IMG/VR virus record: IMGVR_UViG_3300043185_000099
Location: 1-64,000 of that record
Length of the DNA stretch: 64,000 nucleotides
Strand: one strand, 5' to 3'
From: a virus
The notes under the pieces are model-generated. The model made no database searches, had not been told where the DNA came from, and saw only the letters and a program-made list of their open reading frames with translations. Position numbers and translations under genes: made by a program. Each line of letters begins with the position of its first letter. Within the stretch, counting starts at the first letter, position 1. Below, piece by piece: positions 11,588 to 22,295 of the stretch.

Positions 11588-11878
11588 ATGGCCGAGTCGA
11601 GCAAGAGCACGTCACGTGTAGACAGAGCGTGGGGAGTCTCGGATCCCGTAGCGGCCGCGGTGGGCTACGTCGTGACGATCTTGGCAGTGTTCGGGGTCTT
11701 CAAGAACCTGGGCCTCGATCCCGATCAGGTAGCCACTCTAGGCGGCGCCCTAGGGGGTCTTGTGGCGACCCTCCGTGCCCTCCATGAGAGGAGCAAGAAG
11801 CGCCAGATCACGTCTCTCCTGGAAGAGTTGGAGCGCCATCGAGCATCCTCCTCTCACAGCGGCAGCTCGCCGAAGTAA
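11588..11878 (+). CDS. holin-like small membrane protein
   Basis: Two hydrophobic segments followed by a basic/charged C-terminus. Confidence 0.5.
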   Translation: MAESSKSTSRVDRAWGVSDPVAAAVGYVVTILAVFGVFKNLGLDPDQVATLGGALGGLVATLRALHERSKKRQITSLLEELERHRASSSHSGSSPK

Positions 11879-11895
11879 GATTTCTCCGCCAGCGC

Positions 11896-11924
11896 TTGAC
11901 GTCGTCGAGAAAGCCCGCTAGAGT
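11896..11924 (+). promoter_or_regulatory. sigma70-type promoter
   Basis: TTGACG-17 nt-TAGAGT upstream of the Thr-rich leader and tRNA-Thr cluster. Confidence 0.7.
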
Positions 11925-11970
11925 GCTCCCGTCCCTGTCCTTGGCAGGCGGGACGACCGAGAACCACGCC

Positions 11971-12066
11971 ATGAGACGCACCACGACAACCGAGACCACC
12001 GTGACGGCCAAGCCGGCCGCCGCGATGTGGTCGTGCGGCCCCGATACGGCCGCAATCGCGTGTTGA
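11971..12066 (+). CDS. Thr-rich leader peptide (31 aa, MRRTTTTETTVTAKPAAAMWSCGPDTAAIAC)
   Basis: 7 Thr codons within codons 4-12 (ACC, ACG, ACA). Lies between a promoter and three tRNA-Thr genes; resembles thrL-type leaders. Confidence 0.7.
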   Translation: MRRTTTTETTVTAKPAAAMWSCGPDTAAIAC

Positions 12067-12140
12067 GCGTCTCCCCGGTGTAGTTCCGTCCAACAGACAA
12101 CACCGGGGAGACCCGCAGCACGCGAGCCGACCGGCTAGGC
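12007..12140 (+). promoter_or_regulatory. attenuator-like alternative RNA structures
   Basis: Stems: GTCTCCCCGGTGT/ACACCGGGGAGAC (12069-81/12100-12); CGCGTGTTG/CAGCACGCG competing with the CGCGAT..TGCGGCC/GGCCGCA..ATCGCG hairpin; GCCAAGCCGG/CCGGCTAGGC. Confidence 0.5.
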
Positions 12141-12151
12141 ATCATGCCCTC

Positions 12152-12219
12152 GCTGACGTAGCACAGTGGCAGTGCACCGCCCTCGTACTGCGGGGACAAG
12201 AGTTCGATTCTCGGCTCCA
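12152..12219 (+). pseudogene. tRNA-Thr(CGT), apparently with a ~6-nt deletion in the T-stem/acceptor 3' strand
   Basis: GCTGACG..D-arm..CCGCC CT CGT AC TGCGG..AAGAG TTCGATT CTC[..]GGC T CCA. Confidence 0.65.
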
Positions 12220-12238
12220 CGAACCAGGAGAAACCATC

Positions 12239-12311
12239 GCCGGCGAAGCTCAAGAGGAAGAGCGCCTGACTTGTAATCAGGAGGAAGCGGGTTCGACTCC
12301 CGTAGCCGGCT
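12239..12311 (+). tRNA. tRNA-Thr(TGT)
   Basis: Cloverleaf with anticodon arm CCTGA CT TGT AA TCAGG and T-loop GGTTCGACTCC. Confidence 0.85.
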
Positions 12312-12317
12312 CCCGAC

Positions 12318-12393
12318 GCTACCGTAGCTCAGTCGGGAGAGCGCAAACTTGGTAAGTCTGAGGTCGCCGGTTCGATCCCGGCCGGTAGCTCCA
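12318..12393 (+). tRNA. tRNA-Thr(GGT)
   Basis: Acceptor stem GCTACCG/CGGTAGC, anticodon arm CAAAC TT GGT AA GTCTG, encoded CCA. Confidence 0.9.
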
Positions 12394-12420
12394 AGCGACA
12401 AGACGAGGAAAGGAAGACAG

Positions 12421-12537
12421 ATGCCACGCACGCTCACAGGACCACTCGATCAGGACTCCGACGAGGACGACGATCGTTCGCCGCGTTGGGGTAGTGGTCA
12501 TCCTGTCCGGTTGTCTCCCGGACGACACCGCGGATGA
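12421..12537 (+). CDS. Asp-rich leader ORF (MPRTLTGPLDQDSDEDDDR...) reading into tRNA-Asp
   Basis: Purine-rich Shine-Dalgarno (GAGGAAAGGAAG). 6 Asp codons in 9 codons, ending 5 nt before the tRNA-Asp 5' end. Confidence 0.65.
   Translation: MPRTLTGPLDQDSDEDDDRSPRWGSGHPVRLSPGRHRG
12480..12530 (+). pseudogene. tRNA-Asp(GTC), 5' two-thirds, truncated at the T-stem
   Basis: GCCGCGT TG GGGTAGTGGTCATCCT G TCCGG TT GTC TC CCGGA CGAC ACC, then foreign sequence. Confidence 0.65.
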
Positions 12538-12598
12538 GCAGGTCGCGAAGCGGCGCCGGGAAGAGCACGCACGCGTCGTAGACCACGATGAACGCCAC
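12530..12598 (-). pseudogene. PIN-domain toxin N-terminal fragment
   Basis: GTG start, AFIVVYDACVLFPAPLRDLLIR. Typical start of PIN proteins paired with excisionase-like HTH genes; the similarity stops at the tRNA-Asp junction. Confidence 0.65.
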
Positions 12599-12613
12599 GA
12601 CGCGACCTGCCTG

Positions 12614-13066
12614 TCAGTACCCTAGGTCGTGCTTCTGCGCCTCGGCGGCGAGTTCTTCGAGGGCGGCCTTCGCCTCGACTTCTTCGCGGCGCTTGTACTC
12701 GAGGACATCCGCCATCTTGATCCGACGGTGGGTGCCCACCTTCCGGTGCGGGATCTTTCCCTCCTCGAGCAGGCGCACGACGTGAGGCCGGGAGACGTTC
12801 AGGAACTCGGCCGCCTGCTGGGTGGTCAGCTCCGCGTGCTGCGGAAGGATGGCGACCAGGCTCCCGTTCGCCATGTGCCCGAGCACCTCGACGAGAAGGC
12901 GCAGGGCGTCCGGCGGCAAGGTCACGGTGACCTCGTGCCCATTGTCCTCGGAACGCAGGGTCACGGCCCGTGGGGCCCGGGCCCGCTTGCTCAGGGGCTC
13001 GAGCCCGCGCAGGGCCGAGCGGGCGATCTCGGCGGCGTCCTTTGCGGGTGCAGGGGCGGCGTGCAT
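12614..13066 (-). CDS. excisionase-family HTH DNA-binding protein (putative antitoxin)
   Basis: LTTQQAAEFLNVSRPHVVRLLEEGKIPHRKVGTHRRI. Confidence 0.85.
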   Translation of the reverse strand: MHAAPAPAKDAAEIARSALRGLEPLSKRARAPRAVTLRSEDNGHEVTVTLPPDALRLLVEVLGHMANGSLVAILPQHAELTTQQAAEFLNVSRPHVVRLLEEGKIPHRKVGTHRRIKMADVLEYKRREEVEAKAALEELAAEAQKHDLGY

Positions 13067-13499
13067 GGGGTGGGCTCCGAGGGGAGCTTACCCCTCCGCC
13101 GCGTAAACGCAATAAACGAAACCGACCTGAACCAAGGGAGGTTCAAACCGCCCCAGAAACCAGTTTGCAGACCGTTGGCCGGGTTCGAGGGACGCGAAAG
13201 GGTTTGCGAACTCGCCCACGTTCGCGCTCGCGCGGGATGAGCGCCCGTCGGGGTTCGCGCGGGCGCGCTGCTCGGGGGTGAGACGGGGTCGGGACACGGT
13301 CGCGGGGCCACCAGGGTAGCGTCCGCGGCGCGGGTGGCGGTCGAACCTTCGAGATCGCCGGCGCGCCGGCGATGCGTGGGACTCCGCGAACGCACGGCCC
13401 GGGCCGAGGGATTCACCGATCCTCGGGAAACGGGCAGCTAGAGGGTCTGCGGGCGCGGTGGTGGAGGGGCACAGAGGAGGCGAGGGCCCGGGCGGTCGT

Positions 13500-13800
13500 C
13501 GCGAATGGTACAGGCACACGACGAGGGGCAGGCGAGGTCGCACGGTCACGATCCCGCGAGACCTCGTCCAGGCGCTTCGTGTCGCGAACCCGGGAGCGAA
13601 CGATCCCGTCGCCCGCGGCGCGGATGGGCAACGCGTCATGCCGTGCGCCCTGACCGAGCTGCTCCCCACCTTGCTGCGCAAGGCGGGGCTCGACCGACCC
13701 GGCCTCGGGCTGCACTGCCCGCGGCACACGTACTGCTCGCCGACCGGTACAGGCACCTCGCCCCGAGGCACGTCGAGCAATCCGTTCACGGGCGGCCCGG
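13500..13800 (+). pseudogene. tyrosine recombinase/integrase C-terminal remnant
   Basis: T[R]GRRGRTVTIP and LHC[P]RHTYCS, then a jump to DRYRHLAP (catalytic Tyr region) in another frame with the intervening segment missing. Confidence 0.65.
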
Positions 13801-13848
13801 CCTTGACCCGGACCTGACGGCAAGAAGCCCCGTTTTCGGGGCCTAGAC

Positions 13849-13888
13849 GGAGCGGGAGACGGGATTCGAACCCGCGACATCCAGCTTG
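13849..13888 (-). other. 3' half of a tRNA-Gly (att-like site)
   Basis: Minus strand reads CAAGCTGGATGTCGCGGGTTCGAATCCCGTCTCCCGCTCC. No 5' half nearby; adjacent to the integrase remnant. Confidence 0.7.
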
Positions 13889-13944
13889 CCTTCTAAGCAA
13901 GCGTGCAGCAAAACAAGACCTCGCACTCGGAACGACCTGACATT

Positions 13945-14066
13945 GCCGGACCACGACCCCATCGGGGGGTCACCGACTCAAAATCGGAAAAGACCGCAGC
14001 ACTCGCCTCCCCGAGAGGCATCCGCGGATGGTCCACAAGCTCCTGGTTCGACTCCAGGGTCCGGCG
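13945..14066 (+). tRNA. atypical tRNA-Leu(CAA)-like gene with a ~53-nt variable region
   Basis: Acceptor GCCGGAC/GTCCGGC, anticodon arm CCGA CT CAA AA TCGG, T-arm CCTGG TTCGACT CCAGG. D-arm is non-canonical. Confidence 0.5.
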
Positions 14067-14096
14067 CCGAAGGTGGCCCGCCAGACAGGGCCTACA

Positions 14097-14153
14097 AGCA
14101 AAGTAGCTCAATCGGTTGAGCGTCTCGATCGCAACGAGAAGGTCGCTGGTTCG
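14097..14153 (+). pseudogene. tRNA-like fragment, anticodon CGC (Ala), truncated in the T-loop
   Basis: TAGCTCAATCGGTTGAGCG TCTCG AT CGC AA CGAGA AGGTC GCTGGTTCG, then foreign sequence. Confidence 0.5.
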
Positions 14154-14431
14154 GCAGCCGCTTCCTGGACCCATCGACGGAGAACGTCGCCGTCAAACGT
14201 CTCGGCGAACAGGTGGAGACGGGTCGTGTGCGCTGCAGGTGCACGGAACGAGGTCGCGTAGTACCGGCTGAACTCCTCGATGTAGTGCCGGTCGACGTAC
14301 GGGTGTTCCACGACCATCGTGCCGATGTCGAACCCACCGTGGCGAAAGTAAGCGGCGAGGTACTTGACCTGCTCGGACTCATGGTCCCCGCCGCACACTT
14401 CCGCCACGAGCTGTTGCAGCGGCCGCGTCAT
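14108..14431 (-). pseudogene. N-terminal fragment of a bacterial hypothetical protein
   Basis: VVEHPYVDRHYIEEFSRYYATSF...RLHLF. The frame runs into the antisense of the tRNA fragment, suggesting truncation. Confidence 0.45.
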
Positions 14432-14445
14432 GGCCGATGCCGAGG

Positions 14446-14625
14446 CTACCGCAGGCGGATGCGAAGATCCTTTGCGGTCAACTTCTCAAGAGATGCGGTC
14501 CCGGCTTCCACCGCTGCACGGAACTCGGTCGCCTCCTTGTCCAGGCGGTCGAGATCGGCGTCGGTGAGGGTCGCAGGTCGAGGCAGCTCCGTCGCCAGTT
14601 TCGGCTTCTGGGTCTCGTCGGCCAT
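14446..14625 (-). CDS. small hypothetical protein
   Basis: MADETQKPKL..., GGAG Shine-Dalgarno. Confidence 0.55.
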   Translation of the reverse strand: MADETQKPKLATELPRPATLTDADLDRLDKEATEFRAAVEAGTASLEKLTAKDLRIRLR

Positions 14626-14691
14626 GGTGCGCTCCCGAAGATCCGGGGAGGATCTCGGCGTCAGGCTAGCCGCCGCTGCGCCGAGGCGCAA

Positions 14692-14716
14692 GGTTCAAAT
14701 TCTGTCCCCGCTACCA
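14692..14716 (+). other. 3' fragment of a tRNA-Met(initiator)-like gene
   Basis: GGTTCAAATTCTGTCCCCGCTACCA. Confidence 0.45.
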
Positions 14717-14807
14717 CGACAATCCCGAGGTCGGTCGCCGATGGCGGCGTGACAGGCCGGCCTCGCATGCCCCCCTCCTCAGGGATCGTCGACGTGGCTT
14801 CTATGCC

Positions 14808-15470: not shown

Positions 15471-15523
15471 GCGTCTGAACACGGTCCCATGATGATCTCC
15501 CGACATAGCGACGAGCCACACAT

Positions 15524-15600
15524 GGTGGGTGTAGTGCAGTCGGTCAGAACGCGGGTCTGTGAAACCCGAGGCACCGGTTCGATCCCGGTCACCTACCCCA
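15524..15600 (+). tRNA. tRNA-His(GTG)
   Basis: G-1, anticodon arm CGGGT CT GTG AA ACCCG, T-arm, C discriminator and encoded CCA. Confidence 0.9.
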
Positions 15601-22141: not shown

Positions 22142-22192
22142 TCCGATGCCCGTCACACACCACAAGCTCAAACGCAACCGCTCCCGAAACAA

Positions 22193-22274
22193 GGGCGGGT
22201 TAAGCGTAGCTGGCCGAACGCACCGGACTTTTAACCCGGCGAGGAGAAATCCCCATCGAATCCCACCCCGCTCT
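22193..22274 (+). pseudogene. tRNA-Lys(TTT) with a long variable arm, 5' T-stem strand missing
   Basis: Acceptor GGGCGGG/CCCGCTC, anticodon arm CCGGA CT TTT AA CCCGG, V-arm GGA GAAA TCC, then ATCGAATCCCAC lacking the GTGGGTT strand. Confidence 0.6.
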
Positions 22275-22295
22275 CCGCAACGAAGGAACACAGCC

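Follow-up and report, generated by a model that had tools for sequence, protein, structure and literature searches.

A probable relic of an Asp-rich leader reading into tRNA-Asp, cut by host-like DNA, and its intact counterparts in large GC-rich phages

Introduction

Leader-peptide sensing of charged tRNA is textbook biology for amino-acid operons. In the translational attenuation of ermC and cat, drug-dependent stalling on a leader peptide frees a ribosome-binding site, and T-boxes are structured RNAs that are not translated and that bind tRNA in its uncharged state. Integrase-mediated events at tRNA genes usually duplicate the 3′ part of the tRNA and restore the gene. Leader-peptide transcription attenuators of amino-acid operons include thrL, hisL, pheL, trpL, leuL and ilvL, as set out, for example, in PMC1183508 and PMC3082878. 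Our full-text searches, which covered literature outside subscription journals, turned up no account of tRNA genes controlled by leader peptides.

Here we analyse a stretch of 64 kb, referred to throughout as the window, from the IMG/VR virus record IMGVR_UViG_3300043185_000099, whose full length is 151,955 bp. The record is ~29% complete by CheckV and carries phage replication genes. The nearest relative that we found is a viral contig of 618,736 bp with 55 tRNA matches (G001), whose DNA polymerase is 55% identical. Because the record is only ~29% complete and its nearest relative is a contig of 619 kb, the window probably belongs to a megaphage of several hundred kilobases.

We propose, with moderate confidence, that positions 12405-12516 of the window are the relic of a clade-conserved unit, in which a leader reads into a tRNA-Asp, that was cut by host-like DNA, and that the intact unit gates the tRNA by the speed at which Asp codons are read. 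The clade that conserves this unit is one of large GC-rich phages.

Results

An Asp-rich reading frame runs into a partial cloverleaf

A sequence-only reading of this DNA had called a purine-rich Shine-Dalgarno sequence, an ATG at 12421, an Asp-rich run and, 5 nt behind the run, a tRNA-like half that begins at 12480. All of these are present in the sequence and its translation (Table 1). Asp accounts for six of the 18 leader codons that follow the ATG, and the in-frame run itself (12448-12474) holds six Asp and one Glu among nine codons. Beginning at 12480, one can trace an acceptor 5′ strand, a D-arm and a hairpin of 5 bp (12506-12510 with 12518-12522) that carries GTC at the centre of its 7-nt loop.

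Table 1. Features of the window at and around the Asp site
Feature	Coordinates	Strand	Basis and remarks
Thr-rich leader ORF before the tRNA-Thr cluster	11971-12066	+	31 codons; conserved in L065, L048, L081, L062
tRNA-Thr(TGT)	12239-12313		upstream of the Asp site
tRNA-Thr(GGT), last intact gene of the Thr cluster	12318-12393	+	ARAGORN; Rfam 63.2 bits
Purine-rich putative ribosome-binding site of the leader	12405-12416	+	sequence; agrees with the GGAG-type site conserved in relatives
Leader ORF up to the tRNA-like start	12421-12479	+	19 full codons, 6 Asp; translation, alignment
Apparent remnant of the tRNA-Asp(GTC) 5′ half, through the anticodon (12513-12515)	12480-12516	+	model R2, alignments
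Captured host-like DNA, ~608 bp, in place of the tRNA-Asp 3′ part	12517-13124		blastn
Junction zone, 5-6 shared nt	12517-12522		tRNA-Asp anticodon-stem 3′ strand (L062, L082) equals PIN antisense; by eye
PIN_3/VapC50_C-type toxin gene, truncated	12517-12598	-	codons 1-23, a 12-nt in-frame deletion, 4 more codons
TGA ending the plus-strand ORF, fortuitous	12535-12537	+	inside the captured PIN DNA
HTH_17 antitoxin-type gene, intact	12614-13066	-	150 aa; Pfam PF12728, E 2e-15

Intact units in seven related contigs

The tRNA-Thr(GGT) gene is the synteny anchor of the locus, and the Asp unit comes after it in relatives. The window gene is 88-92% identical to the tRNA-Thr(GGT) of three related contigs, L062, L065 and L074. 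Used as a probe, it gave 24 metagenome matches, most of them bacterial Tyr-Thr-Trp loci of low GC, which we did not use further. Four matches lie on phage-like contigs of 57-58% GC; three of these (L062, L065 and L074) carry the Asp unit, and the fourth, L080, ends at tRNA-Thr(GGT). A probe made from the tRNA-Asp 5′ end led to three more viral contigs, of 83-147 kb (L081, L082 and L083). Together with G001/L048, these contigs provide seven intact units.

In all seven, an intact tRNA-Asp(GTC) follows the tRNA-Thr cluster and stands directly behind an Asp-rich ORF with its ribosome-binding site and ATG. The relatives share the order Thr(TGT)-Thr(CGT)-Thr(GGT)-Asp(GTC), and the window remnant likewise lies just after Thr(GGT). 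The array of G001 runs Thr(TGT), Thr(CGT), Thr(GGT), an odd Thr-like element, Asp(GTC), Asp(GTC) and Val; before its first tRNA-Asp there is a GGAG site, an ATG ten bases on and ten codons, six of them Asp, the last of which abuts tRNA +1. The check that the sequence-only reading had proposed, a search of related phages for an intact leader with its tRNA-Asp, thus succeeded in seven contigs, and the match between leader codons and tRNA is real and conserved, as the Asp-rich read-in ORFs of the seven relatives attest. Because the seven share descent, they represent one origin and not seven independent cases.

Several other routes to relatives yielded nothing. A search of viral contigs with the haloperoxidase gene produced no relatives, a tblastx comparison of 12394-12520 with all loci returned Arg-rich low-complexity matches only, and a guessed pattern, an Asp run before a bacterial-type tRNA-Asp 5′ end, had no match in viral contigs.

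The DNA just before the Asp leader differs among the relatives. A tRNA-like element of 70-74 nt occupies this place in L048 (543-612, minus strand), L081 and L082, and is called Thr by ARAGORN with varying anticodons (TGT, GGT and AGT). A different conserved, hairpin-like element is found there in L062, L074 and L083.

Design of the intact leader

The intact leaders are 33, 36, 45 or 48 nt long and comprise 10-15 codons, with GAC or GAT (Asp) at 6-8 of them. Together, 46 of their 81 codons are Asp (57%), as against 5-7% in the long ORFs of the relatives' genomes. Six of the seven have a GGAG-type site 8-10 nt upstream of the ATG; in L083 the site is degenerate (AAAGGA). In every unit the frame is phased with tRNA +1, so that the final codon ends at tRNA -1, and the last Asp codon is invariably followed by two codons for other residues before the tRNA begins. 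Among the leader Asp codons, 61% are GAT, compared with 26-58% (~39% on average) in the relatives' long ORFs, a modest excess that is suggestive only.

No stop codon occurs before or inside the tRNA in any of the seven, nor does a terminator, and the next tRNA follows within a few nucleotides. The read-in ORFs have no fixed end, which counts against our reading: they run on for 39-110 codons, crossing one to three tRNAs, and end 85-298 nt past the tRNA start. With respect to classical attenuators, the unit has the short ORF with its ribosome-binding site and start, and the run of cognate codons, and lacks the stop followed by alternative hairpins and an intrinsic terminator. The consensus fold of the seven sequences (RNAalifold) contains the cloverleaf only, with 11 pairs kept through two-sided changes in at least one sequence; the leader is unstructured in this seven-way consensus and has no terminator. 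Pairings between leader and tRNA, seen in the single-sequence folds of two of four relatives, are absent from the seven-way consensus, and the idea of an 'anti-acceptor' pairing was dropped.

The relatives differ in the non-Asp positions, the leader length and the choice between GAC and GAT, but they have kept ribosome-binding site, ATG, frame and richness in Asp. The retained site, ATG and frame, the length changes by whole codons, the free non-Asp positions and the lack of leader structure all fit a translated leader, and we infer that these features reflect a translated ORF in which the Asp codons would be the point of selection. The conservation of frame is weaker evidence of coding than it appears, since GAY repeats slip by 3 or 6 nt.

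An account in which the Asp-rich stretch is kept for some reason other than sensing, be it an acidic peptide, an RNA or DNA processing or binding signal, or a slippage-prone repeat retained by descent, has several points in its favour: poly-acidic low-complexity runs are common, a sequence-only model of the leader and half-tRNA (R1, below) finds comparable GAY-rich stretches in coding genes of the window, and all seven relatives come from one ancestor. We nonetheless regard it as unlikely. The pattern of what varies and what persists in the leaders speaks against it, as does the enrichment of cognate codons in Ile, His and Thr leaders too (below), which is not accounted for by an Asp-specific peptide or signal.

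The window carries half of a tRNA-Asp

The window leader shares its ribosome-binding site and its ATG-CCA start with L062 and L065 in alignment, and its end resembles that of L065. It differs from these two leaders in having ~27 extra in-frame nucleotides (around 12427-12453) between the start and the Asp run.

General tRNA searches are blank at the site. ARAGORN reports no tRNA there, whether it is run on the window or on the full record of 151,955 bp. Rfam RF00005 has no match at 12480-12530 at the gathering threshold (29 bits) or, in a 1-kb search, at E<=10, and has none when the stretch is cut at 12524, which permits a 3′-truncated match. With blastn, 12470-12535 gives chance matches only and no tRNA in 50,697 phage records, and megablast of 1-25000 against phage and plasmid collections gives no match. 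The site therefore does not qualify as a full tRNA: it has no cloverleaf score of at least 29 bits, no T-arm and no acceptor 3′ strand.

The picture is different with a covariance model of the tRNA-Asp 5′ half that was built from 11 related genes (R2; alignment A5). With filters off, 12488-12522 ranks first in the 64-kb window over both strands (21.1 bits, E 3.4e-5), with a score that exceeds that of a genuine tRNA-His in the window; an R2 search of the phage's own genome did not list the site, unlike the direct unfiltered search. R1, the sequence-only model of leader plus half-tRNA, places 12444-12498 second in the window at 11.9 bits, behind an Asp-rich coding stretch, and the similarity of the site to tRNA-Asp is greater than that of 99.7% of random 43-mers from the genome. 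The sequence-only reading had made its tRNA depend on a covariance score at 12480-12530. Rfam formally gives none, but the clade-specific half-tRNA model does score the site. The Rfam blank is explained by truncation together with decay, and the Rfam threshold is too strict for a decayed half-gene.

The remnant passes as a 5′ half of the clade's tRNA-Asp(GTC) under R2 with two departures. The model aligns 12488-12496 to the acceptor strand and skips the D-arm, and position 37 (12516) is T in the window, where each of the 11 related genes has A. In its anticodon arm the remnant is nearly identical to L062 and L082. The 5′ end is ambiguous, lying at 12480 if the cloverleaf is followed or at 12488 if the covariance model is; a start at 12480 makes for a tidier cloverleaf and brings the piece close to the second type of tRNA-Asp in the relatives. 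Whichever end is right, the piece by its sequence derives from a tRNA-Asp. The earlier description of an intact acceptor 5′ strand, D-arm and anticodon arm is accordingly sound in part: the three elements can be drawn, GTC sits in mid-loop and R2 matches, but the D-arm goes unused by the model and the base at 37 is aberrant.

Host-like DNA interrupts the tRNA at the anticodon loop

The DNA that follows the remnant is 82-87% identical by blastn to Nannocystaceae/Myxococcales MAG DNA (L002-L005 and L040). The blastn homology is bounded at 12523-12531 and 13121-13125, and reaches 12517 once a 12-nt gap is allowed. From end to end, the product of the antitoxin-type gene within it has 88-92% amino-acid identity to proteins from MAGs of Nannocystaceae, Myxococcales and 'Deltaproteobacteria'; among viruses it has one distant match only. 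Next to it, the PIN-type toxin gene is a stump. Its full-length relatives are ~188 aa long (92 PIN homologues were found), and 21-22 of its first 23 residues are identical to theirs; past the 12-nt in-frame gap, 13 more bases (12529-12517, four codons) match intact PIN genes. The fragment thus falls short of a toxin-antitoxin pair, with an intact antitoxin and a toxin reduced to 27 codons, and there is no further PIN piece anywhere in the 152-kb record.

How far this PIN gene once extended bears directly on the tRNA. If it ran on leftwards, 12480-12522 could be a chance look-alike of a tRNA, the antisense of decayed PIN sequence, and the Asp run the antisense of Arg-rich codons. The blank Rfam and ARAGORN results and the lack of a blastn tRNA match in 50,697 phage records agree with this. 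So does the minus-strand ORF (12598-12434) downstream of the antitoxin gene, which stays open for 54 codons, and gapped BLASTP and tblastn alignments to PIN proteins reach residue 52. However, a PIN profile of 76 proteins supports residues 2-23 only (46 bits) and gives -2 bits for residues 24-54, and shuffle tests of DNA and protein over 12437-12517 detect no PIN signal (P 0.06-0.98). Profile and shuffle tests alike thus find none to the left of 12517. The site is also the top match of the tRNA-Asp half-model in the window, and it shares with the relatives the position of leader and tRNA-Asp, the ribosome-binding site, the ATG-CCA start and the end of the leader. We consider a PIN-antisense origin very improbable, and it was rejected for want of PIN signal beyond codon 27.

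The reading of the site as a truncated tRNA-Asp allows the junction to be placed. The anticodon-stem 3′ strand of L062 and L082 and the PIN antisense have five identical bases here (12518-12522), so that the hairpin's 3′ strand matches PIN-gene DNA and may equally be the tRNA's own. At 12516 the window has T, the relatives have A37 and the PIN antisense would give G. The apparent cut in the tRNA is in the anticodon loop, at 12516/12517. Since five bases are shared at the junction, the join looks like illegitimate recombination, and the anticodon-stem microhomology of 5 nt is its probable site. The join also gave rise to the TGA at 12535-12537 and to the minus frame that is open to 12434.

These results modify the earlier view that the T-arm had been replaced by foreign DNA. 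The foreign DNA is real, but it begins at 12517, in the anticodon loop and stem and not at the T-arm. The suspicion that the copy is dead was borne out, as everything 3′ of the anticodon is host-like toxin-antitoxin DNA; as it stands, the window copy cannot give rise to a tRNA. The antitoxin and the fragment hint at a Nannocystaceae-like (Myxococcota) host. The arrangement also suggests that the phage may use the orphan antitoxin against a host PIN toxin, possibly a tRNA-cleaving one.

Other elements of the window array are defective or fragmentary. The Thr(CGT)-like tRNA at 12152-12219 (plus strand) scores 27.6 bits, just below the Rfam threshold, has a defective T-arm and acceptor stem, and is probably a decaying member of the Thr cluster. 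Beyond the captured fragment, in the region 13125-14720, there is a 28.4-bit tRNA at 14097-14163; short matches to the T-arms of relatives' tRNAs occur at 13858-13884 and 14691-14716, and ARAGORN alone calls a Ser tRNA at 13849-13924. The tRNA array appears to be broken in several places.

Other leaders in the arrays

We scanned the arrays for ORFs with a ribosome-binding site and an ATG and no stop before a tRNA, which gave 15 distinct cases. The cognate amino acid is first or second in rank among the 20 in all seven Asp frames, in three of four Ile frames, in the one His frame and in one of two Lys candidate frames. It is outside the top two in one Ile and one Val frame and in the second Lys candidate.

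The Thr cluster has a leader of another kind. Its Thr-rich ORF (Table 1), the start of which we take to resemble the E. coli thrL peptide, has two or three Thr codons just before its end and a stop inside a conserved motif, and ~90-110 nt of hairpin-forming RNA lie downstream of this stop motif. It looks like a classical attenuator placed before tRNA genes.

This leader is a reason to ask if the Asp mini-ORF, though conserved, acts through transcription, like the classical leader-peptide attenuators, by uncoupling of ribosome and polymerase, by Rho-dependent polarity or by an unrecognised attenuator: a classical-looking leader, with its stop in a motif and ~110 nt of structured RNA, is present in the same array. 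We regard such control as a less likely alternative. All seven Asp units tell against it, in that none has a stop between leader and tRNA, where there is also too little space for a hairpin or a U-run.

Read-in frames before other tRNAs vary in their detail. Ile(GAT) read-in mini-ORFs occur in L065, L081 and L083, each with a ribosome-binding site; they have 11-12 codons after the ATG, among them 2-4 Ile and several Asp/Glu codons, and end 1 nt into tRNA-Ile. At 15489-15600 of the window (plus strand), a short ORF runs stop-free into tRNA-His(GTG). Homologous ORFs before tRNA-His in G001 (L047 1142-1217, minus strand), L062 and L074 have 1-5 His codons, and the final ATG overlaps the extra G-1 of tRNA-His. 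A Lys(TTT) tRNA with a long variable arm is found in the window (22146-22285, plus strand) and in L048 (6048-6138), with a ribosome-binding site and read-in ORF upstream. This ORF has two Lys among the 14 codons after its ATG, and a third Lys codon straddles the tRNA start. The window Lys(TTT) tRNA may be defective, because it is short of 8 nt of T-stem relative to G001 and has a low Rfam score (22.9 bits).

Discussion

We propose that the intact Asp leader reports the speed of ribosomes on Asp codons. When charged tRNA-Asp is scarce, a ribosome would stall near the beginning of the Asp run, at 20-40 nt from the tRNA, and the nascent tRNA could then fold and be excised by RNase P. When tRNA-Asp is plentiful, the ribosome would enter the tRNA body and hold it unfolded, and the yield would fall. 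As neither a stop nor a terminator lies between leader and tRNA, kinetic competition is the simplest mechanism. That the leader is translated, and that ribosome and tRNA folding compete, is our inference from the design of the unit.

A broader idea, which we hold tentatively and at less than even confidence, is that several tRNA genes of the clade (Asp, and apparently Ile, His and Lys) regulate themselves in this terminator-free manner, each through an in-frame cognate mini-ORF, with the cloverleaf as the regulated structure. If so, the phage could replace on demand a tRNA that is depleted by the host or by a host tRNA-cleaving defence. Control of this kind would also account for the way in which giant phages that carry tRNA genes by the dozen adjust their tRNA output to demand, as when host tRNAs become depleted or are cut by defence nucleases.

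What the locus appears to add to the known repertoire is a monovalent, terminator-less leader that reads into a tRNA, as found in seven intact relatives, together with an example of such a unit destroyed, to judge from its sequence, by host DNA. The Asp unit would be the simplest form of this control, with one amino acid, no terminator and the ORF welded to the tRNA. The broken copy in turn illustrates the decay of an array, in which 0.6 kb of host toxin-antitoxin DNA sits in an anticodon arm and an orphan antitoxin is left behind.

With regard to its junction, the window copy is like the truncated tRNA genes at recombination or integration junctions, where a partial tRNA lies beside non-native genes. 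It is unlike integrase events in that only the 5′ half survives, and the 5-nt microhomology suggests illegitimate recombination instead.

With regard to its proposed control, the Asp unit has features of several systems. Like a T-box, it would use codon-anticodon logic in a 5′ leader to read the status of one particular tRNA, but the Asp leader has no conserved structure; Rfam finds no T-box in the window at the gathering threshold or in 11800-12800 at E<=10, and no other Rfam family matches the Asp site. As in ermC and cat, a stalled leader ribosome would alter the folding of downstream RNA with no terminator involved. The difference is that stalling in the Asp unit would track charged tRNA-Asp and would free a cloverleaf for RNase P. 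With the leader-peptide attenuators of amino-acid operons it shares a short ORF with its own ribosome-binding site and a run of codons cognate to the product, and ribosome speed is the presumed input. In contrast to those attenuators, its product is the tRNA itself and not a biosynthetic operon, its leader has neither a stop nor a terminator/antiterminator pair, and its ORF reads into the tRNA, whose fold would be the regulated structure.
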